A stretch of DNA of 64,000 nt, taken from the NCBI RefSeq assembly GCF_036507355.1, contig NZ_AP027877.1, one strand, 5' to 3'. The translations under genes and the position numbers were made by a program. This DNA is from Escherichia coli (GTDB lineage Bacteria > Pseudomonadota > Gammaproteobacteria > Enterobacterales > Enterobacteriaceae). Each line of letters opens with the position of its first letter. The first letter of the stretch is position 1. The notes under the pieces are model-generated. The model was not told where the DNA came from and did no database searches. It saw only the letters and a program-made list of their open reading frames with translations. Positions 5,316-49,565 of this stretch are shown one piece after another.

Positions 5316-6473
5316 TTGAAACGTAGTCTGCTTTTTTCTGCCGTGCTGTGTGCGGCGTCATTGACCTCCGTCCATGCGGCGCAGCCGATCACTGAACCGG
5401 AGTTTGCCTCTGATATTGTCGATCGTTATGCCGATCATATTTTTTACGGCAGCGGTGCCACGGGGATGGCGCTGGTTGTTATCGACGGTAACCAGCGCGT
5501 CTTTCGCAGTTATGGCGAAACGCGACCTGGTAATAACGTTCGCCCGCAGCTGGATTCGGTCGTGCGTATTGCTTCCCTCACCAAGCTAATGACCAGTGAG
5601 ATGCTGGTGAAATTGCTCGACCAGGGGACCGTGAAGTTAAACGATCCGCTAAGTAAATATGCTCCGCCAGGCGCACGCGTGCCAACCTACAATGGGACGC
5701 CCATTACGCTGGTCAATCTGGCAACCCATACCAGCGCCCTGCCCCGTGAACAGCCCGGTGGCGCGGCACATCGTCCGGTGTTTGTCTGGCCAACGCGCGA
5801 GCAACGCTGGAAATACCTTTCTACGGCGAAGCTGAAAGCCGCGCCAGGCAGTCAGGCGGCGTACTCTAACCTTGCGTTCGACCTGCTGGCAGATGCACTG
5901 GCGAATGCGTCCGGCAAGCCTTATACCCAGTTGTTTGAAGAGCAGATTACCCGTCCATTGGGGATGAAAGACACCACCTACACCCCCTCACCGGATCAGT
6001 GCCGCCGTTTAATGGTTGCTGAGCGCGGTGCCAGTCCGTGCAATAACACGCTGGCGGCAATTGGCAGCGGCGGCGTCTATTCCACGCCTGGCGATATGAT
6101 GCGCTGGATGCAGCAGTATTTGTCATCTGATTTTTATCAGCGCAGTAACCAGGCAGATCGCATGCAGACGTTGATTTATCAGCGCGCGCAGTTTACGAAA
6201 GTGATTGGCATGGATGTCCCCGGCAAAGCGGATGCGCTTGGTTTAGGCTGGGTATATATGGCCCCGAAAGAGGGTCGTCCGGGGATTATTCAGAAGACAG
6301 GTGGTGGTGGCGGTTTCATTACCTATATGGCGATGATCCCGCAGAAGAATATTGGCGCGTTTGTGGTGGTCACTCGTTCGCCGTTGACGCGCTTTAAAAA
6401 TATGAGCGATGGCATCAATGATCTGGTGACCGAGCTAAGCGGGAATAAACCGTTGGTTATCCCCGCGTCCTGA
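5316..6473 (+). CDS. ampH: Penicillin-binding protein AmpH (class C beta-lactamase-like DD-peptidase)
   Basis: 385-aa ORF with TTG start, signal peptide MKRSLLFSAVLCAASLTSVHA and serine-hydrolase motif ASLTK. Confidence 0.9.
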   Translation: MKRSLLFSAVLCAASLTSVHAAQPITEPEFASDIVDRYADHIFYGSGATGMALVVIDGNQRVFRSYGETRPGNNVRPQLDSVVRIASLTKLMTSEMLVKLLDQGTVKLNDPLSKYAPPGARVPTYNGTPITLVNLATHTSALPREQPGGAAHRPVFVWPTREQRWKYLSTAKLKAAPGSQAAYSNLAFDLLADALANASGKPYTQLFEEQITRPLGMKDTTYTPSPDQCRRLMVAERGASPCNNTLAAIGSGGVYSTPGDMMRWMQQYLSSDFYQRSNQADRMQTLIYQRAQFTKVIGMDVPGKADALGLGWVYMAPKEGRPGIIQKTGGGGGFITYMAMIPQKNIGAFVVVTRSPLTRFKNMSDGINDLVTELSGNKPLVIPAS

Positions 6474-6663
6474 TTAATACTCTGAAGGCAAACGGTTGAT
6501 AGCGACCAGTTTGCCTTTATTCATTTCGATATAGCCGCCTTTACGCAAAGCAGCGAGAACTTCTGCGACGACAGAACGCGATATGCGTGTACGTTGATGG
6601 ATATAATTCATCACACCAATACGTGATCGCAATTCTTCATTCCAGTCAATCATTGATAATAAC

Positions 6664-6722
<59 letters not shown>

Positions 6723-6856
6723 AATTCTATTTTGCCAGGCTAACCAGTAAAAAGCGTCTCGCCAGAGTTGATTTTGTTCAATAAGCGTAATGGTTTGTTT
6801 GGCTGGTAGATGATATCCCGTACAATTTCCTTCTGATATTAATTTGTATGGTATAT

Positions 6857-6865
6857 CGTTTTTCA
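6857..6865. repeat. IS1 target-site duplication, left copy (CGTTTTTCA)
   Basis: 9 bp immediately left of the IS1 inverted repeat, identical to 7634..7642. Confidence 0.85.
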
Positions 6866-6920
6866 GGTGATGCTGCCAACTTACTGATTTAGTGTATGAT
6901 GGTGTTTTTGAGGTGCTCCA

Positions 6921-7196
6921 GTGGCTTCTGTTTCTATCAGCTGTCCCTCCTGTTCAGCTACTGACGGGGTGGTGCGTAACGGCAAAAGCACCGCCGGACA
7001 TCAGCGCTATCTCTGCTCTCACTGCCGTAAAACATGGCAACTGCAGTTCACTTACACCGCTTCTCAACCCGGTACGCACCAGAAAATCATTGATATGGCC
7101 ATGAATGGCGTTGGATGCCGGGCAACAGCCCGCATTATGGGCGTTGGCCTCAACACGATTTTACGTCACTTAAAAAACTCAGGCCGCAGTCGGTAA
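6921..7196 (+). CDS. insA: IS1 protein InsA
   Basis: 91-aa [43 protein letters not shown]... (zinc-finger/HTH InsA). Confidence 0.9.
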
Positions 7197-25983: not shown

Positions 25984-26084
25984 CTTTGTTTCCAAACCCG
26001 CTGAATAATTTTTAGCGAGTATACCTGCAAACGCCGTGGGTGTATTGGGGGCAAGTCCCTTTCGCCCCTGCTTAATAAGGCGCG

Positions 26085-27296
26085 TCAGGCATCGGCACAC
26101 GGCTGCATTCTTGATCTCCGACTCATCAAAATAAACACCGCCAACCCAGCAACAAGAATACCCGGTGCAGAAGCGGCCATTACGCCGACCGTGCCAGTGC
26201 CTAATGCCAGCATTTTCCCGGCCAGTAACGGACCGCTCATAGCCCCCAGACGCCCTACCGCCACGGCTGTTCCCACACCTGTTGCGCGGATCTGCGAACT
26301 GTAAAACAACGGTGCCAGGGCATACAAAACGCTTTGCCCACCTGTCGCAAACAACCCCGCGACAAATCCCGCCAGCAACATACCGTTAAATGACGACACC
26401 GTTCCAAGCGCCAGCAGCGAAGCTAACATGCCGCTATAAATCAGTAGCGACATGGTTACTGGACGCAGCTTATCCATCAATGCGCCCAACATTAACGTCC
26501 CGCTTGCCGCCCCCATTTGCAGTGCAAACATCACCCCTGCCGCCTGCGATGGCTGGAATCCTTGCTCCACCAAAAGCAGCGGTAGCCAGTTGATCAACAT
26601 GTAGACCACCAGCAGAGTGAAGAAATAACACAACCACACCAGCAGCGTCGCGGTTGCCGTTTCTGGCGCAAATAACGCACGCAGTGGTGGCGCAGCCTGT
26701 TTTTCGCCAGCGAAAACCGCCGACTCCGGCAGCCAGCGCATTAATAGCGGCACCAGAATCAACGGCACCACACCACCTACCCAAAACACCGTTTGCCATG
26801 CTAAGTTTGCCCCCGCGAAACCCAGTGTCGCCGCCAGCGCCGCGCCAATGGGAACACCGCAATACATCAGGCTCACTGCCGTCCCACGAAAACGTGGACC
26901 CGCGGCTTCAGACGTCAGGGCGATAAGATTCGGCAACGCCGCCCCCAGCCCGACACCGGTCATCAGCCGCGCAAAGACCAGTGAGGGGAAATCCCAGGCA
27001 ATCGCCGTTGCCAGCGAGAACAAACCAAACAGCGCAACTGAGCCAATCAAAATGCGCTTGCGACCATAACGGTCCGCCAGCATTCCGCCAACCAACGCGC
27101 CGGGTAGTAAACCGAGTATTCCGGCGCTGAATATCCAGCCCATTTGCATTTTATCGAGTGCGAAAGCCTGGGCGATGCCACCCGCCGCAATGCCAGCCGC
27201 CTGAAGATCCAGCCCTTCCATCAGAGCGACCAAAAAACAAAGCCCGATGGTCAGCATCAGGCGGGATGAAGATGATGAAGGGGTACGAGTCGACAT
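26085..27296 (-). CDS. mhpT: 3-hydroxyphenylpropionate transporter (MFS)
   Basis: 403 aa from MSTRTPSSSSSRLMLTIGLCFLVALMEGLDLQAAG...; the track ORF extends 23 codons upstream. Confidence 0.9.
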   Translation of the reverse strand: MSTRTPSSSSSRLMLTIGLCFLVALMEGLDLQAAGIAAGGIAQAFALDKMQMGWIFSAGILGLLPGALVGGMLADRYGRKRILIGSVALFGLFSLATAIAWDFPSLVFARLMTGVGLGAALPNLIALTSEAAGPRFRGTAVSLMYCGVPIGAALAATLGFAGANLAWQTVFWVGGVVPLILVPLLMRWLPESAVFAGEKQAAPPLRALFAPETATATLLVWLCYFFTLLVVYMLINWLPLLLVEQGFQPSQAAGVMFALQMGAASGTLMLGALMDKLRPVTMSLLIYSGMLASLLALGTVSSFNGMLLAGFVAGLFATGGQSVLYALAPLFYSSQIRATGVGTAVAVGRLGAMSGPLLAGKMLALGTGTVGVMAASAPGILVAGLAVFILMSRRSRMQPCADA

Positions 27297-27365
27297 AAGA
27301 TGAACCTCGTTGCGAGTGCAGGTGAATCGCGACTGATACATTGCCAGCCGCGTAATCAGAACCAT

Positions 27366-27545
<180 letters not shown>

Positions 27546-27572
27546 CAAAATGCACGTTCTCGGCAGTCAATA

Positions 27573-28582
27573 TTATTTGTTGTTGCGCAGATCCAGCGCC
27601 ACGTCGACGATCATATCCTCCTGGCCACCAACCATCCGGCGTTTGCCCAGCTCAACGAGAATATCCACCGCGCTTAAGCCATAACGCGCCGCCGCCGTTT
27701 CACAGTGACGCAGGAAGCTGGAGTAAACACCAGCGTATCCCAGCGCCAGCGTTTCGCGATCGACTCGTACCGGTCGATCCTGCAACGGACGCACCAGGTC
27801 GTCAGCGGCATCCATTAACGCATAGAGATCGGCCCCATGCTGCCAACCCAGTTTATCCACGGCGGCAATAAATACTTCCAGCGGCGCGTTACCTGCGCCC
27901 GCGCCCATTCCCGCGAGGCTGGCGTCGATTCGGTCGCAGCCCTCTTCCACCGCCGCGATAGAGTTCGCCACGCCAAGACTCAGGTTATGGTGAGCGTGCA
28001 TGCCGGTTTGCGTTTCTGGTTTCAGCACTGCTTTCAGGGCGCGGAAACGGTCACGGATATCGCTCATGTTCATCGCACCGCCAGAATCCACCACATAAAT
28101 GCAGGTCGCACCGTAGCCTTCCATCAGCTTTGCCTGCTTGGCGAGATTCTCCGGCGTGGTCATATGGCTCATCATCAGAAAACCAACGGTGTCCATTCCG
28201 AGCTCGCGGGCATACTGAATATGCTGGGCGGAAACATCAGCTTCGGTACAGTGCGTAGCCACACGAACCACCCGCGCGCCAGCCTGCCAGGCATTTTTCA
28301 GATCGTGAATAGTGCCGATTCCTGGCAGCAACAACGTCGCGATTTTGGCGTGCTTCACCACATCCGCCGCTGCTTCAATCCATTCAAGGTCGCTATGTGC
28401 GCCGAAATCATAGTTAAAGCTGGAACCCTGCAAACCGTCGCCGTGGGCCACTTCAATCGAATCCACGCGGGCATCGTCCAGTGCTTTGGCAATCTGGCGA
28501 ACGTTTTCCAGCGAATACTGATGACGAATGGCGTGCATACCGTCACGCAACGTGACGTCCGAAATATAAAGTTTTTTACCGT

Positions 28583-28586
<4 letters not shown>
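27573..28586 (-). CDS. mhpE: 4-hydroxy-2-oxovalerate aldolase
   Basis: 337-aa [40 protein letters not shown]... Confidence 0.95.
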
Positions 28587-30348
<1,762 letters not shown>

Positions 30349-31215
30349 TTAAGCACGTGCGAGGAAATTCAGCACCAGTTGATTGAAAGCGTCGGCATGT
30401 TCCCACTGCGCCCAGTGACCACAGTCGCGGAAGATATGCAGTTCAGAACCGGCAATGCCGGACAGCAGACGCAGACCCGCATCCATCGGCACAAAGCGGT
30501 CGTTGCGCCCCCAGACAATCAGGGTTTGCGCTTTGATTTCCGCCAGACGTGGGCCAAAATCCGGGAACTGTTTCGGATTAGCTTCCAGGCTCTTAACGAA
30601 ATTTTCCAGGTGATCGCGGCGCGACAGCATATTATTCAGGCGCGCTTCAAACAGGGCGTCGGTCAAATCGCTGGTATCAAAAACGAAGATATCCATCATC
30701 AGCTTCAGGTTTTCGATAGTCGGCTGACGATAAAGCTGATTCAGTCGCTTAATACCTTCGGTTGGCATCGGCGTAAACAAACTCATGCCGCCCGTACCGC
30801 CGCCCATCAGCACCAGTTTGCCGACGCGCTCCGGCCAGTTAAGGGTGAACGCCACAGAACTATGGCCACCCATCGAGTTGCCCAGCAGGTGGATTTTGGC
30901 GATATCCAGTTGATCCACCACGCTTTTCAGGATTCGTGCATTAAGATCCGATCGCGAACCACTATTAACGATCGAATCGCTCTTGCCCCAACCCGGACAA
31001 TCCAGCAGGATCACCCGATAGCCCGCCTCTACCAGCGGATCGATATTGCGGCTGAAGTTCGCCCAGCCAGTAGCACCCGGGCCGGAACCATGCAGCAGGA
31101 CAACGGTTTCGTCGCCTTGTCCGCAGTCATTAAAATGGATGCGCAGCGTTTTACCCGCTTCTTCTACATTCAGAAAACGGCTGGTGGCGGCTTCGGTTTG
31201 TGGCTGATAACTCAT
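30349..31215 (-). CDS. mhpC: 2-hydroxy-6-ketonona-2,4-dienedioate hydrolase (alpha/beta hydrolase)
   Basis: 288 aa from [34 protein letters not shown]...; motif GNSMGG; the track ORF starts 21 codons upstream. Confidence 0.9.
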
Positions 31216-31232
31216 CATCTTCTCCTGCATAT

Positions 31233-32177
31233 TCAGTTCTCTGTTCTGGCGCTTAACGAGCCAAATCCGGCAATCCACTCCGGGATTGGGCGGTAATAAC
31301 GCCCTTCGCTACGCCAGTTGCCAAATGCAGAAATAGCGGCAAAAGCGGCGACCCAGGTTTTGATTTCATGTGTCGACTTTCCGGCAATGGCGGAAAGCTC
31401 TTCGTTACTGACGGCATCCAGTTCCTGTATGCGTCCCTGCTCCAGCAAAGTCATGAACTGGTTATCCCAAATCGGGTTGAGCGGATGCAGAGTTCTCTGA
31501 TCCTCAACAAACTTCTCAGCGGCGCTAATCACCCGTTGCTGACGCAATTCGCGCTCACTGGCGGGTAAATCTTTCCCGCTCCCCAACAGGCGGTCGCGCA
31601 TATGGGCATCGGCTTTCGCCAGTTCGGGCACCGGCGGCTGATGGGAAAGCCCACCGGAACCCAGGAACAGCACGCGTTTATTGAGAGTGCTGGTGAAACG
31701 TCCAATGGCTTCACCCAACATGCGGGTACGCTGGAAACCGGGCAGCGGCGTGGCGACACCGTTGATGAACACAGGCAGAACTGGCACCTTATCCAGCCCA
31801 CCGAGCAGGAACTCCAGCGGCTGGGCGAACCCGTGGTCCACCTGCATACAGTAAGAAACGGCAAGATCGATCCCGCTCTTCATGACGGCATGCGCACAGG
31901 CCTCCGCCAGCTCCACAGGCACTGGCAGCTCTCCTGCCGCACTGCCGAAATCACCAATTGCCGTCGCTCCAACGCCTAAACAGAACGGTGGCATCACGTC
32001 ATAGAAAAAGCCGTTGTAGTGATCTGGCGCAAACAGCACCACCAGTTCAGGGGAGAAAGCCGCAATACGCTCGCGGGCGCTGGCAATCACGCCATTGACC
32101 TCATCGAGTACCTCTTGTGCCGGGTCGACATACCCCACCAGCGGCGAGTGGGAAAGACAATGAAGATAAGCGTGCAT
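31233..32177 (-). CDS. mhpB: 3-carboxyethylcatechol 2,3-dioxygenase (extradiol)
   Basis: 314-aa [35 protein letters not shown]... Confidence 0.95.
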
Positions 32178-32178
32178 A

Positions 32179-33843
32179 TCAGGCTACCTTTTCGACAGAA
32201 ACGTCGGCATCAGGGCGGGTCAGCGTCATCACCGACGCCAGTTTATTCAGGGTCTTGCCCAGGGTTTGCGGAATGGCGGTGGCGGCAACAAAGCGATCCG
32301 GGCGCATCACCACCAGCGAAGCATTGTGTTGCGCGAACCAGCTACGCAGGCGACCTTGCGTATCCCCCACGCGTAGTACGCCGTCGTGGTTATCCTGTGC
32401 GGTATGAATTTGCACTTCCGGCACCACCTGAATGAAGCGTGTGCCCAACGCGCGCCACTGCTGGATTTGCTCGTCGCTCATCCCCCACAGTGGATTGCAT
32501 CCCCAGCCAATTACCGCGAAGTTCGCGCCGATCGCGTTATCGAGCAGCGTCGCGTCGCCGTTTTCCAGCGTGACTTTCGGCTGAATAAACATCTTGCCGA
32601 CCGGAGAGTGCTTCGCTTCGCCCTCACGTACCAGCGCACCGCCGTAATATTGCGGCATCGGCTTGAAGCGCATTTCGAGGAAGTAGCGTTTTACTGGCGG
32701 CAGATAATTCAGCAGCCAGGAAACGCCGTCACGTAACGTACCCTGCCAGCGTTTCGGCGGAGCCAGCACGTTGCCCGCCGTCACGGACAGGTCAATCATC
32801 GCTTTGGCGTGATCGCGACGTTCTTGTTGATAGGTATCGAGCAGCGCATCGCGGGCTTTCCCCTGGATAACCAACGCCAGTTTCCATGCGAGGTTAAAGG
32901 CGTCGCGCATGCCACTGTTATAGCCCTGCCCCTGCCATACCGGCATGATGTGCGCGGCATCGCCCGCCAGCAGTACGCGATCAATACGGAAACGTTGCGC
33001 CAGTCGCGCGTTGTGGGTGTAGACACGCTGGCGAATCAATTCAACATTGTCCGGATTAGGCAGCACTTTGCTTAACAGCTTGCGCATATTTTGCGGCTCA
33101 CGCAGCTGTTCTTCGGTTTCTCCTGGCATCACCATAAATTCAAAGCGACGTACCGCATGAGGTAGCGCGGCAGAAACATACGGGCGCACCGGATCGCAAC
33201 ACAAATAGATATGCGGCGTACTTAACGGATCGTTGGCGATATCTACCACAATCCACTGATTTGGCGCAGTTTTACCTTCAAACGGCACATTCAGGGTGCG
33301 ACGGACAAAACTTGCCCCACCATCACAGGCCACCAGCCACTGGGCTTTGACTATTTCCCGCTGCCCTTCTGCCGTTTTCAGGTGCAAGGTCACTTCGTCA
33401 TCTTGCTGACTGAAGGCCTCCAGCTCGCGGGAAAACAAGCAGCGCACATTCGGAAAACGCGACACCCCTTCCAGCATCACCGCATCGACCTGCGGCTGAA
33501 TAAAGGCGTTACGGCGCGGCCAGCCAAATTCATCGGTCATTGGCTGAATATCAGCAAAACAGCGGCCCTTCGGGGTGAGAAAACGCATCGCGTGCCACGG
33601 CGTTGTATGCGGCAGAACATTATCGACCAGGCCGACCGACTGCATGGTGCGCAGCGCCTCGTCATCAATACCAATCGCACGCGGGTAGTCGATCAACTTA
33701 TCGAGTTTCTCCACCACCAGCACGTCAATGCCCATCTGGCCGAGATAGTTCGCCATCATCAGCCCGACCGGACCGGCACCAGCGATCGCCACCTGAACGC
33801 TATGGTTAACAGCAGGCTGGATGTCAGGGTGTTGTATTGCCAT
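32179..33843 (-). CDS. mhpA: 3-(3-hydroxyphenyl)propionate hydroxylase (FAD monooxygenase)
   Basis: 554-aa ORF with FAD-binding fingerprint [29 protein letters not shown]. Confidence 0.95.
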
Positions 33844-34033
33844 TTCAGTACCTCACGACTCGGACAAAATGCCGTTGCGCGCACAGTACAGCGCAACTTA
33901 TTTTGTTAAAAACATGTAAATGATTTTTTATTGTGCGCTCAGTATAGGAAGGGTGTTTTCGGCTACAATCAAAACATGCCCGAATGTGCACTAGGTGCAC
34001 AACGTTGTTTTAACTATAGAAATGTCAATTAAT
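33844..34033. promoter_or_regulatory. Divergent mhpR / mhpABCDFE control region
   Basis: 190-bp AT-rich intergenic region between divergently oriented mhpA and mhpR; individual sites not resolved by eye. Confidence 0.5.
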
Positions 34034-34867
34034 ATGCAGAACAATGAGCAGACGGAATACAAAACCGTGCGCGGCTTAACCCGCGGTCTAATGTTATTAA
34101 ATATGTTAAATAAACTTGACGGCGGTGCCAGCGTCGGGCTGCTGGCGGAACTCAGCGGCCTGCATCGCACCACTGTGCGGCGACTGCTGGAGACGCTGCA
34201 GGAAGAGGGATATGTCCGGCGTAGTCCCTCCGATGATAGTTTTCGTCTGACCATCAAAGTGCGGCAATTAAGCGAAGGATTTCGTGACGAACAGTGGATT
34301 TCTGCACTGGCGGCCCCACTGCTGGGCGATCTGTTACGCGAAGTGGTATGGCCGACAGATGTGTCCACGCTGGATGTTGATGCAATGGTGGTACGCGAAA
34401 CCACCCACCGTTTCAGCCGCTTATCCTTTCACCGGGCAATGGTCGGGCGACGTTTGCCGCTTCTGAAAACCGCCTCGGGCCTTACCTGGCTGGCCTTTTG
34501 CCCGGAACAAGAACGCAAGGAATTAATCGAGATGTTAGCCTCCCGCCCCGGTGATGACTATCAACTGGCACGAGAACCGTTAAAGCTGGAAGCCATTCTG
34601 GCGCGCGCGCGCAAAGAGGGTTACGGACAGAACTACCGCGGCTGGGATCAGGAGGAGAAGATCGCCTCTATCGCCGTACCGCTGCGCAGTGAACAACGGG
34701 TGATTGGCTGTCTGAATCTGGTGTATATGGCGAGCGCAATGACCATCGAACAGGCCGCGGAAAAGCATCTTCCGGCACTACAACGGGTAGCAAAACAGAT
34801 CGAAGAAGGGGTTGAATCGCAGGCTATTCTGGTGGCCGGACGGCGAAGCGGCGTGCATTTACGCTAG
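34034..34867 (+). CDS. mhpR: IclR-family activator of the mhp operon
   Basis: 277 aa from MQNNEQTEYKTVRGLTRGLMLLNMLNKLDGGASVGLLAELSGLHRTTVRRLLETL... (IclR HTH plus effector domain). Confidence 0.9.
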   Translation: MQNNEQTEYKTVRGLTRGLMLLNMLNKLDGGASVGLLAELSGLHRTTVRRLLETLQEEGYVRRSPSDDSFRLTIKVRQLSEGFRDEQWISALAAPLLGDLLREVVWPTDVSTLDVDAMVVRETTHRFSRLSFHRAMVGRRLPLLKTASGLTWLAFCPEQERKELIEMLASRPGDDYQLAREPLKLEAILARARKEGYGQNYRGWDQEEKIASIAVPLRSEQRVIGCLNLVYMASAMTIEQAAEKHLPALQRVAKQIEEGVESQAILVAGRRSGVHLR

Positions 34868-34981
34868 TTACGCCAATGTGTAATTTGGCCCATTCTCATC
34901 GTTATTCGCCCATTTGCCCACATGCACAGCACGGGCTGCACGCTACGCTAATGACATCAATACTGTGATGTGGAGCAAATC

Positions 34982-35758
34982 ATGAAAATTACGCAAATTC
35001 GTAATGCCACCCAAATTATCCAATACGCTGGCAAAACATTTCTTATCGACCCGTTACTCGCGCCTAAAGGAAGTTATCCGGGTTTTGCCGGAACGGCACG
35101 CGCAGAAATCCGCAATCCAACGGTAGAATTACCGTGCGATTTAACAACGTTACTCAACGTTGACGCCCTAATCGTGACCCATTTGCATGAAGATCATTGG
35201 GACGAAACAGCCTCCCGCGTCGTCCCTAAAGATAAACTGATTTATGTGCAAAATGAGCAAGATGCGGAATCACTGAATAAACAAGGATTTACGCATCTTA
35301 CCGTACTTACCGACGAGACTAAATTTGGCGATATTACTCTGCATAAAACGACAGGGCAGCACGGCTCCGATCGCACCTATGCCGACCCGGCGATGGCGAA
35401 GCGTTTAGGCGCAGCCTGCGGCGTTGTTTTCCAGCACCCGACAGAGAAAACGCTCTATCTGGCTGGCGATACCCTCTGGCGTGACGACGTCGAGGCTACA
35501 ATGCTAACTTTCCAACCAGAAGTGGTTGTGTTGAATGCCGGATTTGCGCATGTTCTGGGGCATGGCGCGATAATTATGGGAGCAGAAGATATTCTCAAAA
35601 CACATTTTACCCTGCCAGAAGCGCAAATTGTCGCGACACATATGGAGGCCGTAAACCACTGTTTGCTGACGCGTGATGCGCTCAAGGAATACGCCAGAGA
35701 TAATCAAATTATCGAATTTGTGAACGTACCAGAAGATGGTGAAACGTTGACATTCTAA
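34982..35758 (+). CDS. Metallo-beta-lactamase-fold hydrolase (HxHxDH motif), function unknown
   Basis: About 258 aa from MKITQIRNATQIIQYAGKTFLIDPLL... with metal-binding motif THLHEDHWD; not part of the K-12 mhpR-lacI interval as I recall it. Confidence 0.75.
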   Translation: MKITQIRNATQIIQYAGKTFLIDPLLAPKGSYPGFAGTARAEIRNPTVELPCDLTTLLNVDALIVTHLHEDHWDETASRVVPKDKLIYVQNEQDAESLNKQGFTHLTVLTDETKFGDITLHKTTGQHGSDRTYADPAMAKRLGAACGVVFQHPTEKTLYLAGDTLWRDDVEATMLTFQPEVVVLNAGFAHVLGHGAIIMGAEDILKTHFTLPEAQIVATHMEAVNHCLLTRDALKEYARDNQIIEFVNVPEDGETLTF

Positions 35759-35777
35759 TTCGGAGATAAAGAGTGTT

Positions 35778-36731
35778 ATGCGCCCGCTAACTGTTGCCAT
35801 TATCGCCGTTGCCGGTTTTAGTCCTTTTCACCTTTCCGTACCGTTTATCGTATTTAGCGAAAAAATGGCGGAGAAAAAACACTTTCACGTAATTATCTGC
35901 GCTGAAAAGCCGGGAAACGTGGACTCTGCCGATGGGTTTTCCGTAACCGCCACCCATGACTATACCGCAGTCATCCAGGCGGATATTGTGATAATTCCTT
36001 ACTGGGGAACAATTACACAAAAACCGCCACAAAAACTGCTGGAAGCCTTAACGACCGCACGGGATAACGGCGCACAGATTGTCGGGCTTTGCCTGGGCAC
36101 GTTTGTGCTCGGCTATGCAGGTTTACTGAAAAATAAGCGTGCCGCCACGCACTGGGAGTTCGAGCGTGAATTTCAGGCACGTTTTCCACAAACACATCTG
36201 GATATTAACGCGTTGTACGTAGACGATGACGGCATTATTACCTCTGCCGGTACTGCCGCGGCGCTGGATTGCTGTTTGTATATTGTTCGGCAACATTTTG
36301 GCAGCGACTATGCTAACCATATTGCCCGACGGATGGTCGTACCGCCATATCGCACCGGCGGTCAGGCGCAGTTTATTGAGCAACCAGTGCCGAAAAATAC
36401 CCATGATGAACGCATTAATCTCCTGCTGGATTACCTGCGGCAAAACATTGCGCAACAGCATGATCTCGACTCGCTGGCGCAGCGAGTAATGATGAGTCGC
36501 CGCACATTAACTCGCCATTTTATGAAAGCGACCGGTTCGAGTATCGCCGAATGGCTCATTACTGAACGCTTACGCCGTAGCCAGGAACTGTTGGGATCCA
36601 GTCAGTTGCCCGTTGAGCGGATAGCGGCTGAGGTGGGTTTTCTCTCACCTGTGACCTGGCGTCAGCATTTTAAATCTCACTTCGGCGTCAGCCCCGCCGA
36701 ATGGCGCAAAACCTTTCGCGGTATGGCATGA
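35778..36731 (+). CDS. AraC-family regulator with N-terminal DJ-1/PfpI-like domain (GlxA-type)
   Basis: 317-aa ORF; N-terminal class-I glutamine-amidotransferase-like fold with GLCLG elbow; C-terminal AraC HTH (...RRTLTRHFMKATGSSIAEWLITERLRRSQELL...GFLSPVTWRQHFKSHFGVSPAEWRK); its last about 30 nt are the lacI promoter. Confidence 0.8.
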   Translation: MRPLTVAIIAVAGFSPFHLSVPFIVFSEKMAEKKHFHVIICAEKPGNVDSADGFSVTATHDYTAVIQADIVIIPYWGTITQKPPQKLLEALTTARDNGAQIVGLCLGTFVLGYAGLLKNKRAATHWEFEREFQARFPQTHLDINALYVDDDGIITSAGTAAALDCCLYIVRQHFGSDYANHIARRMVVPPYRTGGQAQFIEQPVPKNTHDERINLLLDYLRQNIAQQHDLDSLAQRVMMSRRTLTRHFMKATGSSIAEWLITERLRRSQELLGSSQLPVERIAAEVGFLSPVTWRQHFKSHFGVSPAEWRKTFRGMA

Positions 36732-36745
36732 TAGCGCCCGGAAGA
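36700..36745 (+). promoter_or_regulatory. lacI promoter
   Basis: cgaatGGCGCAAaacctttcgcggtatggCATGATagcgcc matches the canonical lacI promoter (-35 GCGCAA, -10 CATGAT) as recalled. Confidence 0.8.
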
Positions 36746-36767
36746 GAGTCAATTCAGGGTGGTGAAT

Positions 36768-37850
36768 GTGAAACCAGTAACGCTATACGATGTCGCAGAG
36801 TATGCCGGTGTCTCTTATCAGACCGTTTCCCGCGTGGTGAATCAGGCCAGCCACGTTTCTGCGAAAACGCGGGAAAAAGTGGAAGCGGCGATGGCGGAGC
36901 TGAATTACATTCCCAACCGCGTGGCACAACAACTGGCGGGGAAACAGTCGTTGCTGATTGGCGTTGCCACCTCCAGTCTGGCCCTGCACGCGCCGTCGCA
37001 AATTGTCGCGGCGATTAAATCTCGCGCCGATCAACTGGGTGCCAGCGTGGTGGTGTCGATGGTAGAACGAAGCGGCGTCGAAGCCTGTAAAGCGGCGGTG
37101 CACAATCTTCTCGCGCAACGCGTTAGTGGGCTGATCATTAACTATCCGCTGGATGACCAGGATGCCATTGCTGTGGAAGCTGCCTGCGCTAATGTTCCGG
37201 CGTTATTTCTTGATGTCTCTGACCAGACTCCCATCAACAGTATTATTTTCTCCCATGAAGACGGTACGCGACTGGGCGTGGAGCATCTGGTCGCATTGGG
37301 TCACCAGCAAATCGCGCTGTTAGCGGGCCCATTAAGTTCTGTCTCGGCGCGTCTGCGTCTGGCGGGCTGGCATAAATATCTCACTCGCAATCAAATTCAG
37401 CCGATAGCGGAACGGGAGGGCGACTGGAGTGCCATGTCCGGTTTTCAACAAACCATGCAAATGCTAAATGAGGGCATCGTTCCCACTGCGATGCTGGTTG
37501 CCAACGATCAGATGGCGCTGGGCGCAATGCGCGCCATTACCGAATCCGGGTTGCGCGTTGGTGCGGATATCTCGGTAGTGGGATACGACGATACCGAAGA
37601 CAGCTCGTGTTATATCCCGCCGTTAACCACCATCAAACAGGATTTTCGCCTGCTGGGGCAAACCAGCGTGGACCGCTTGCTGCAACTCTCTCAGGGCCAG
37701 GCGGTGAAGGGCAATCAGCTTTTGCCCGTCTCTCTGGTGAAAAGAAAAACCACCCTGGCGCCCAAGACGCAAACCGCCTCTCCCCGCGCGTTGGCCGATT
37801 CATTAATGCAGCTGGCACGGCAAGTTTCCCGACTGGAAAGCGGGCAGTGA
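36768..37850 (+). CDS. lacI: Lactose operon repressor
   Basis: 360 aa from the GTG start VKPVTLYDVAEYAGVSYQTVSRVVNQASHVSAKTREKVEAAMAELNYIPN...; the track ORF starts 3 codons upstream at an alternative GTG. Confidence 0.97.
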   Translation: MKPVTLYDVAEYAGVSYQTVSRVVNQASHVSAKTREKVEAAMAELNYIPNRVAQQLAGKQSLLIGVATSSLALHAPSQIVAAIKSRADQLGASVVVSMVERSGVEACKAAVHNLLAQRVSGLIINYPLDDQDAIAVEAACANVPALFLDVSDQTPINSIIFSHEDGTRLGVEHLVALGHQQIALLAGPLSSVSARLRLAGWHKYLTRNQIQPIAEREGDWSAMSGFQQTMQMLNEGIVPTAMLVANDQMALGAMRAITESGLRVGADISVVGYDDTEDSSCYIPPLTTIKQDFRLLGQTSVDRLLQLSQGQAVKGNQLLPVSLVKRKTTLAPKTQTASPRALADSLMQLARQVSRLESGQ

Positions 37851-37863
37851 GCGCAACGCAATT
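37843..37863 (+). promoter_or_regulatory. lac operator O3
   Basis: ggcagtgagcgcaacgcaatt overlapping the lacI 3' end. Confidence 0.8.
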
Positions 37864-37885
37864 AATGTGAGTCAGCTCACTCATT
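37864..37885 (+). promoter_or_regulatory. CRP (CAP) binding site of the lac promoter
   Basis: aatgTGTGAgtcagcTCACTcatt, TGTGA-N6-TCACT core. Confidence 0.85.
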
Positions 37886-37898
37886 AGGCACCCCAGGC

Positions 37899-37934
37899 TT
37901 TACACTTTATGCGTCCGACTCGTATGTTGTGTGA
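37899..37934 (+). promoter_or_regulatory. lac promoter P1 (-35 TTTACA, -10 TATGTT, 18-bp spacer)
   Basis: tttacactttatgcgtccgactcgTATGTTgtgtga; transcript start at the A of aattgtgagcgg (37935). Confidence 0.9.
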
Positions 37935-41047
<3,113 letters not shown>

Positions 41048-42355: not shown

Positions 42356-42400
42356 ATCAATGTCGGATGCGGCGCGAGCGCCTTATCCGACCAACATATC
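42356..42400. repeat. REP element between lacY and lacA
   Basis: tgtcggatgcggcgcgagcgccttatccgacc. Confidence 0.75.
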
Positions 42401-42417
42401 AGGACGGAATGATCGCA

Positions 42418-43027
42418 ATGAACATGTCGATGACAGAAAGAATAAAAGCAGGCAAGCTATTTACCGATATGTGCGAAGGCTTACCGGAAAAAAGACTTCG
42501 TGGGAAAACGTTAATGTATGAGTTTAATCACTCGCATCCATCAGAAGTTGAAAAAAGAGAAAGCCTGATTAAAGAAATGTTTGCCACGGTAGGGGAAAAC
42601 GCCTGGGTAGCCCCCCCGTCTATTTCTCTTACGGTTCCAACATCCATATAGGCCGCAATTTTTATGCAAATTTCAATTTAACCATTGTAGACGACTACAC
42701 GGTAACGATCGGTGATAACGTATTGATTGCACCCAATGTTACTCTTTCCGTTACGGGACACCCTGTACACCATGAATTGAGAAAAACGGTGAGATGTACT
42801 CTTTTCCGATAACGATTGGCAATAATGTCTGGATTGGAAGTCATGTGGTCATTAATCCAGGCGTCACCATCGGGGATAATTCTGTTATTGGCGCGGGTAG
42901 TGTCGTCATAAAAGACATTCCACCAAACGTCGTGGCTGCTGGCGTTCCTTGCCGGGTTATTCGCGAAATAAACGACCGGGATAAGCAATATTATTTCAGA
43001 GATTACAAAGTTGAATCGTCAGTTTAA
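42418..43027 (+). pseudogene. lacA: Galactoside O-acetyltransferase gene with two -1 frameshifts
   Basis: The LacA-like sequence sits in three frames: MNMSMTERIKAGKLF...ENAWV (frame 1, stop at 42649-42651), [55 protein letters not shown] (frame 3), [24 protein letters not shown]...KVESSV (frame 2); the shifts coincide with a C7 run (42611-42617) and an A5 run (42782-42786). Confidence 0.8.
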
Positions 43028-49299: not shown

Positions 49300-49565
49300 T
49301 GGGCAGGCATGATAAGACGCGTCAGCGTCGCATCAGGCATCTGAGCATGGTGTCGGATGCGGCGCGAGCGCCTTATCCGACCTACGGTTCAGGCCTGTAG
49401 GCATGATAAGACGCGTCAGCGTCGCATCTGGTATCAGCGCAGGGTGTCGGATGCGACGCGAGCGCCTTATCCGACCTACGGTTCAGGCCTGTAGGCATGA
49501 TAAGACGCGCCAGCGTCGCATCAGGCATCTGCGCACAACTGTCGGATGCGCCACGCGACGCATCC
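49300..49565. repeat. Tandem BIME array (about three REP-pair units, roughly 94-bp period)
   Basis: catgataagacgcg(t/c)cagcgtcgcatc...gtcggatgcg...gcgccttatccgacctacggttcaggcctgtagg repeated head-to-tail between codB and prpE. Confidence 0.85.

Follow-up and report, generated by a model that had tools for sequence, protein, structure and literature searches.

The promoter of lacI (PlacI) is considered here in a 64,000-nucleotide (nt) stretch of Escherichia coli DNA (RefSeq assembly GCF_036507355.1, contig NZ_AP027877.1; hereafter, the window), in which it is contained in the 3' coding end of an intact upstream gene, ovrA. In the window, mhpR is followed by a gene for an MBL-fold metallo-hydrolase, by ovrA, and by lacI and lacZ (Table 1). 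In K-12 MG1655, lacI lies 76 nt after mhpR; its sequence agrees exactly with the window between C36698 (CGAATGG...) and the start of lacI, and the DNA preceding C36698 is replaced by the 3' end of mhpR. We consider it very probable that PlacI overlaps the ancestral end of ovrA and that K-12 and most E. coli deleted ovrA while keeping the tail that carries the promoter.

The segment between mhpR and lacI, approximately 1.83 kb with z0443 and ovrA (z0442), is by its gene content and sequence O-island 19 (OI-19). OI-19 of enterohemorrhagic E. coli (EHEC) O157:H7 comprises these two genes in 1834 bp (PMC8565820), and OvrA is an AraC-type activator of LEE1/ler in the locus of enterocyte effacement (LEE) (PMC8565820, PMC10877973). 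Over the length of OI-19, the window and O157:H7 TW14359 share 99.07% identity.

The ovrA open reading frame (ORF) ends, in the window translation, in ...GVSPAEWRKTFRGMA (in the shorter form, ...SPAEWRKTFRGMA) before the stop, and its last codons read gcc gaa tgg cgc aaa acc ttt cgc ggt atg gca tga. An FtrA/GlxA profile match covers residues 5-314 of 317 (E = 6e-97, 324.6 bits), and homologs of OvrA are recorded with PF01965 (DJ-1/PfpI) in the N-terminal part and PF12833 (HTH_18) in the C-terminal part. Because 324.6 bits falls short of the NCBIfam FtrA equivalog cut-off of 425 bits, we assign OvrA to the GlxA/FtrA-like family but not to the FtrA equivalog. We regard the ORF of the window as a genuine full-length gene. 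The NCBI Prokaryotic Genome Annotation Pipeline (PGAP) labels it "GlxA family" or "OvrA," the gene name ovrA being used in genomes that are 97.8-99.4% identical across OI-19, and in some genomes the product name is "OI-19-encoded virulence regulator."

The lacI promoter within the 3' end of ovrA

A preliminary description of this DNA had placed the lacI promoter inside the 3' coding end of an AraC-family gene, and both hexamers and the codons of the gene tail were found exactly as it claimed. From C36698 to the lacI GTG, the window shares with K-12 the -35 hexamer GCGCAA, the 17-nt spacer, and the -10 hexamer CATGAT; unlike the K-12 promoter, the copy in the window is not intergenic but falls within the last 10 codons and the stop of intact ovrA. 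The string GCGCAA-N17-CATGAT occurs once in the window (36704-36732), with ∼0.07 occurrences expected by chance. T36724 and G36725 (TG at -15/-14) precede G36726 and CATGAT, which places the promoter in the extended -10 (TGn) class, and the stop codon of ovrA lies within this TG-extended element (TGGCATGAT at 36724-36732). The -35 hexamer agrees with the consensus at 2 of 6 positions. The promoter elements are 36 nt 5' of the lacI GTG, and the window is 100% identical to MG1655 over 36698-36767; the ovrA tail and lacI leader are likewise 100% identical among O157, the window, and K-12. Transcription of lacI presumably starts near G36740, the position expected from K-12.

A generic consensus promoter scan of the window misses PlacI, the -35 element being too weak for it, and says nothing on function; we therefore identify the promoter by its identity to that of K-12 lacI, which has been defined by experiment. 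The same promoter/terminator scan showed no terminator-like hairpin between ovrA and lacI. Mutations described in the lacI promoter include lacIq, a CG-to-TA change at -35, and the lacIq1 deletion (PMC4217526). In the context of the window, the lacIq change (C36705 to T) would be read as Arg310Cys in OvrA.

The preliminary description had also called the promoter a gene fossil. This stands insofar as the -35 element and spacer are coding sequence of ovrA; it does not stand as to their origin, since the promoter was already embedded in an intact gene and did not arise from a dead one.

Table 1. Positions in the window of the genes, promoter elements, and ovrA remnants discussed in the text
Feature	Position	Strand	Remarks
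mhpA	32179-33843	-	
mhpR	33995-34867	+	Stop TAG 34865-34867; PGAP-style start 34034; left border of the segment missing from K-12
Segment missing from K-12-type genomes (OI-19)	34868-36693		Net loss 1824 bp
MBL-fold metallo-hydrolase gene (z0443 of OI-19)	34982-35758	+	Longest ORF from GTG 34970
ovrA (z0442)	35778-36731	+	GlxA/FtrA-type AraC-family regulator, intact, 317 aa; DJ-1/PfpI and HTH_18
lacI -35 hexamer GCGCAA	36704-36709	+	Third base of Trp309, Arg310 CGC, first two bases of Lys311
17-nt spacer	36710-36726	+	Codons Lys311-Thr-Phe-Arg-Gly-Met316 and into Ala317; holds TG 36724-36725
lacI -10 hexamer CATGAT	36727-36732	+	Contains ovrA stop TGA 36729-36731
ovrA tail retained as noncoding DNA in K-12, 34 nt	36698-36731	+	36694-36731 in the E1V33 and E. 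whittamii alleles
86-nt ovrA tail, plasmid-borne lac module	36646-36731	+	Has a 1-nt deletion
99-nt ovrA tail, phylogroup B2 (Nissle type)	36633-36731	+	Deletion of 26049-36632, joined to the yaiL side at 26048
Four ovrA fragments after yaiL, Escherichia sp. MOD1-EC7003	35820-51, 36285-331, 36414-68, 36513-772		Fragmented pseudogene
ovrA-lacI intergenic stretch and lacI leader	36733-36767	+	
lacI	36768-37850	+	GTG start at 36768
lacZ	37973-41047	+	

States of the locus among E. coli

We surveyed 5,426 complete E. coli genomes, in which the carriers of the full arrangement are described by serotype names only. The intact segment is present in 435 genomes, mostly O157:H7 and O145:H28 plus assorted others; 487 have the state of Nissle 1917 (phylogroup B2); and, by subtraction, ∼4,460 have the K-12-like state. 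The B2 state has no mhp cluster, and between yaiL and lacI it has a 99-nt ovrA tail, annotated by PGAP as an incomplete GlxA-family coding sequence (pseudogene).

The full arrangement occurs in two haplogroups, one formed by the window and O157 and the other by Z0117EC0005 and RMDEC465, which are colinear and ∼2% apart inside the segment. Compared with the window over 33400-38150, the second haplogroup (loci L064 and L065) is ∼5% diverged in mhpR and lacI and ∼2% inside OI-19. That the flanks are more diverged than OI-19 suggests recombination or introgression at the locus.

Direction of change and independent truncations

Using LacI as the query, we scanned one genome per bacterial species and then ran tblastn with the neighboring proteins. 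The order MBL-ovrA-lacI-lacZ is found in many Citrobacter species (at least 15 species representatives), with 75-83% protein identity for all four genes, and in C. sedlakii, the MBL gene is immediately preceded by mhpR. Such an arrangement must predate E. coli by far. The gap between ovrA and lacI is 34-36 nt in C. sedlakii, C. amalonaticus, C. rodentium, and two further Citrobacter species, and the Citrobacter proteins end in EWRKTFRGMA (C. sedlakii) or EWRKTF(Q/R)GVAS before the stop. The C. freundii group keeps the gene order with an extra inserted gene. In Citrobacter sp. NCU1 (L022), an MBL-fold gene lies upstream of lacI and tblastn gave no match to ovrA, which may represent another independent loss of ovrA within Citrobacter.

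Remnants of ovrA of different lengths precede lacI in genomes that lack the intact gene. The K-12-type tail is colinear with the 3' end of intact ovrA, in register with it, and near-identical to it, as a gene remnant should be, and the 100% identity of the 34-99-nt remnants excludes, for the aligned sequences, that they are not homologous to ovrA. The 86-nt tail belongs to a lac module found on ∼1,300 plasmids, mostly of Klebsiella, and also in the Pantoea conspicua and Leclercia NCTC13032 assemblies. Progressively shorter and decayed remnants were found in C. koseri, Budvicia, Serratia, Salmonella arizonae/diarizonae, and Pseudocitrobacter. At least four truncations are independent (K-12, 34-38 nt; plasmid, 86 nt; B2, 99 nt; MOD1-EC7003), and none enters the -35 element. 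The overlap, the homology, the direction of the change, and the multiple independent breakpoints are shown directly by these comparisons. The intact gene is the ancestral state and the change was a deletion, not an insertion, because neither a 99-nt in-frame tail nor a multiply deleted pseudogene can be derived from a K-12-like state.

The preliminary description had proposed that an ancestral deletion left K-12 with a remnant of the gene tail and that K-12 matches the window only from CGAATGG onward. Both proposals hold: the former is backed by Citrobacter synteny and by the remnants of differing length, and alignment places the K-12 junction at CGAATGG. The contrary outcome that it had named, an insert acquired recently with flanking repeats of its own, is at odds with the synteny at 75-83% identity and with the ∼2% divergence of the two full-state haplogroups; the latter by itself disfavors a recent acquisition.

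The K-12 junction

In every deletion allele sampled, mhpR and lacI are separated by the same 76 nt. The alleles differ in the bases between the mhpR stop and GAATGG, which read TAA CGCCGCC in Escherichia sp. E1V33 and E. whittamii, TAA TGCCGCC in E. coli OkiPb01714, TAA TACCGCC in SCPM-O-B-8794, and TGA CACCATC in K-12 and most sampled E. coli. CACCATC of K-12 differs from CGCCGCC by three transitions. In the less-derived alleles of E1V33 and E. whittamii, the match to ovrA extends 4 nt further upstream than in K-12, to the start of CCGCCGAATGG (36694), so the K-12 break, as reconstructed from these alleles, originally lay a few bases upstream of CGAATGG. The right end of the deletion was placed within ∼36686-36697 and the left end within a few nucleotides of the mhpR stop. 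As to microhomology, a break in the shared CGCC requires 4-5 later substitutions and a break at ACG|T requires 3.

The K-12 junction itself, cgTTGACAcc, contains a perfect TTGACA across the mhpR stop TGA, 33 nt 5' of the -10 hexamer; the TAA-type junction alleles and the window are without this TTGACA. In our reconstruction, a 15-bp deletion from cgTTGACAcc would yield TTGACA, 18 nt, and CATGAT, which fits lacIq1 as described (PMC4217526).

Composite origin of the promoter

Since the lacI leader diverges outside Escherichia, we relied on an anchored multiple alignment, which covered 23 regions upstream of lacI and at least 10 genera. The motif T.TG(G)CAT.AT is essentially invariant in 23 of 23 regions, one G being only nearly invariant, and AAA at the end of the -35 element is nearly invariant even where the upstream DNA is unrelated. 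The -10 element sits in the last two, nonconserved codons of ovrA and its stop and accompanies lacI in every sampled genus.

Orthologs of ovrA in Leclercia and Enterobacter (∼68% identity) adjoin the same MBL-fold gene and have no lacI downstream. Like OvrA, these FtrA/GlxA regulators paired with an MBL-fold hydrolase have the same domain architecture and keep a C terminus of ...GVSPAEWRKTFR; they differ from it in lacking both a downstream lacI and a -10 element at the stop, and their last 3-8 residues diverge (MRS, ANL, and NASS before the stop). The DNA of the Leclercia ortholog reads GAG TGG CGC AAA ACG TTC CGT ATG CGA TCG TAG, in which GCGCAA is present as Trp-Arg-Lys codons and the -10 element is absent. 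Because this ortholog has GCGCAA without the -10 element, while the -10 element is invariant upstream of lacI, we read PlacI as a composite of an extended -10 core, which always moves with lacI, and of a -35 element and spacer contributed by conserved codons of the gene before it.

In the C. freundii group, the inserted gene separates the ancestral -35 from the -10 element, and lacI retains only TGTGGCATCAT. The inserted gene, on the opposite strand and of ∼250 aa, lies between ovrA (ending ...TFRG[V/D/A] before the stop) and TGTGGCATCAT; it resembles a methyltransferase (DIGCGNG motif) and is at 6229-6984 (-) in locus L009. The same insertion was seen in loci L011, L012, L013, L015-L017, L019, L021, L037, and L038.

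Between E. coli and the Citrobacter species with the tight arrangement, 6-7 of 7-8 synonymous codons of EWRKTFRG are retained, compared with ∼50% over the remainder of ovrA and 3 of 7 in Leclercia. With eight codons and species that are not independent, this retention is suggestive of a dual constraint.

Evolutionary model and alternatives

We propose that in the ancestor of Escherichia and Citrobacter, lacI would have stood 36 nt downstream of ovrA, with a sigma-70 promoter overlapping the ovrA 3' end. The -35 element and most of the spacer would have been codons of the conserved C-terminal AraC helix-turn-helix motif E-W-R-K-T-F-R, and RNA polymerase would start lacI transcription within the end of ovrA, from a weak TG-extended -10 promoter. 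In the line of descent of K-12 and most E. coli, z0443 and all of ovrA save its last 34-38 nt were then lost in a deletion of ∼1.82 kb; different deletions removed ovrA from other lineages. Every surviving version would retain the tail at least to the -35 element, because shorter versions would lose lacI expression. The embedded promoter is probably used in ovrA-bearing strains, and the Trp-Arg-Lys coding constraint may have helped to keep the -35 element weak.

The EHEC literature classes O islands as "horizontally acquired" (PMC8565820), and OI-19 could accordingly be a horizontal insertion in the O157 lineage 5' of an existing PlacI, with K-12 ancestral and an ORF that reads into the promoter. 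The presence of the segment in only 435 of the 5,426 genomes would agree with this, as would its GC content, at 0.48-0.51 slightly under the 0.526 of the window, and the imperfect CGCC(G)AATG similarity of its flanks, which might pass for a target duplication. That similarity amounts to 8 of 9 nt and is all that the flanks share. The segment holds only two metabolic/regulatory genes and no mobility genes, integrase, insertion sequence element, or tRNA, and an Rfam scan of the window placed no RNA gene near the locus. We therefore rejected OI-19 as a horizontally acquired island, given its presence at the same locus in Citrobacter and the lack of a mobility, attachment site, repeat, or atypical-composition signature. 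Further evidence opposes an insertion: the Citrobacter gene order stands at ortholog-level divergence; the B2, MOD1-EC7003, and plasmid modules hold longer in-frame or decayed remnants; and a conserved domain spans the -35 element and spacer, with the same codons in an ortholog that has no lacI beside it. The 17-25% protein divergence also excludes that the Citrobacter loci are recent transfers from phylogroup E. The insertion is refuted by these data, and we give it next to no credence.

Several observations weigh against our reading of an embedded promoter freed by one deletion. The junction is not base-exact, 3-5 substitutions having accumulated there, and the synonymous-site signal comes from those same eight codons in non-independent species. 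In addition, lacI may be partly or largely cotranscribed with ovrA, there being no intervening terminator in the scan. It is on this that a further explanation builds, namely, that in ovrA-intact strains lacI is expressed mainly by read-through from an ovrA (or z0443-ovrA) transcript and that the -35/-10 pair became the sole promoter only after the deletion. The 36 nt between the ovrA stop and the lacI start and the poor match of the -35 element to the consensus fit this too. Yet the TG-extended -10 element is invariant in all lacI lineages, even those with unrelated DNA or a divergent gene upstream (the C. freundii group, Kluyvera, and Salmonella arizonae), which argues that the promoter works whatever lies upstream, and the tail and leader are unchanged among O157, the window, and K-12. 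We judge predominant read-through to be distinctly improbable.

The flanks of the deletion are the other point of difficulty. The K-12-type deletion, always with the 76-nt gap, occurs on flanks that are 4-7% diverged between lineages (the main E. coli group, E. whittamii, and SCPM-O-B-8794), and the flanks of full-state E. coli are ∼99% identical to those of K-12-type E. coli; flanking sequence groups by lineage and not by deletion state. This pattern points to an ancient polymorphism with recombination or to recurrent deletion and not to one clean event. Recurrence would be by deletion between ACGCTAGTTACGCC-AATG on the left and GCGTCAGCCCCGCCGAATG on the right, whose similarity is weak for a recombination hotspot. 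Moreover, the sampled deletion alleles are all exactly equal in length, the substitutions at their junctions are graded (TAACGCCGCC, TAATGCCGCC, TAATACCGCC, TGACACCATC), and the data would be accounted for equally well if homologous recombination had spread or maintained one old allele. Repeated origin of the K-12-type state thus seems to us rather unlikely, and a single deletion origin is favored because the alleles are equal in length and their junctions are graded.

Other observations in the window and related sequences

Downstream of lacZ, lacA seems frameshifted in comparison with K-12 (42367-43027). One ORF (42367-42651, 94 aa) runs from the LacA N terminus to ...GENAWV and then out of frame, and another (42794-43027, 77 aa) corresponds to the LacA C terminus. 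Matches to Rfam naRNA4 (RF02564, a nucleoid-associated RNA derived from repetitive extragenic palindromic [REP] sequences) lie at 27393-27470 (+) and 49306-49382 (-), one between mhpT and the mhp cluster side and the other near codBA, and REP-like repeats near yaiL match several places in the window.

Fragments of lacI that are 92-99% identical to E. coli were found in the assemblies of Lamprocystis purpurea (L004), a SAR11 single cell (L049), and Mangrovicoccus (L056), as well as in a 5.9-kb "plasmid" of Staphylococcus haemolyticus (H179). In L. purpurea, vector-like sequence (...GAGATCCCGGACACCATCGAATGG) lies upstream of the K-12 junction. These fragments in unrelated organisms are probably cloning-vector contamination.

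Novelty and implications

The lacI promoter, OvrA, and OI-19 are each already known, as is the pseudogene call by PGAP of GlxA on the B2 fragment. Our literature search found no paper stating that PlacI lies in or derives from ovrA or that OI-19 is ancestral; the primary OvrA paper (J Infect Dis 2020) was outside that search. Literature on OI-19 treats it as an island of O157 versus K-12, with the lacI promoter unmentioned, whereas here it appears as an ancestral enterobacterial gene pair deleted by most E. coli. Promoters in the 3' coding end of an upstream gene and regulatory remnants of pseudogenes share with PlacI the overlap with a preceding ORF and the survival of the signal-bearing part after gene loss. 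The present case differs from these in its unusually complete natural deletion series, whose breakpoints number four or more in Escherichia-type lacI modules, with further ones in other genera, and in concerning a textbook gene.

No new mechanism is involved, and the finding is of value as an explanation and for teaching. The breakpoints at 34-38, 86, 99, and ∼220 nt, together with those of other genera, delimit what lacI needs upstream. The PlacI carried on cloning vectors gains a concrete evolutionary origin, its -35 element and spacer being the final conserved codons of an AraC-family gene since deleted, and this coding origin offers a simple reason both for the weakness of the promoter and for the ease with which it is improved. 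OI-19 with OvrA, seen as an ancestral segment lost by most E. coli, alters the view of how OvrA was recruited to LEE control.

It is a tentative and, taken as a whole, rather unlikely proposal that the weakness of PlacI is a legacy of Trp-Arg-Lys coding in the DNA-binding domain of OvrA and that LacI dosage is also coupled to OvrA expression. If it is true, the lacIq up-mutation would amount to the Arg310Cys change in OvrA, and strains that retain ovrA (EHEC O157:H7, O145:H28, and Citrobacter rodentium) would physically couple LacI dosage to transcription and translation of a virulence regulator, by read-through or promoter occlusion, so that lactose regulation would be linked with control of the LEE.

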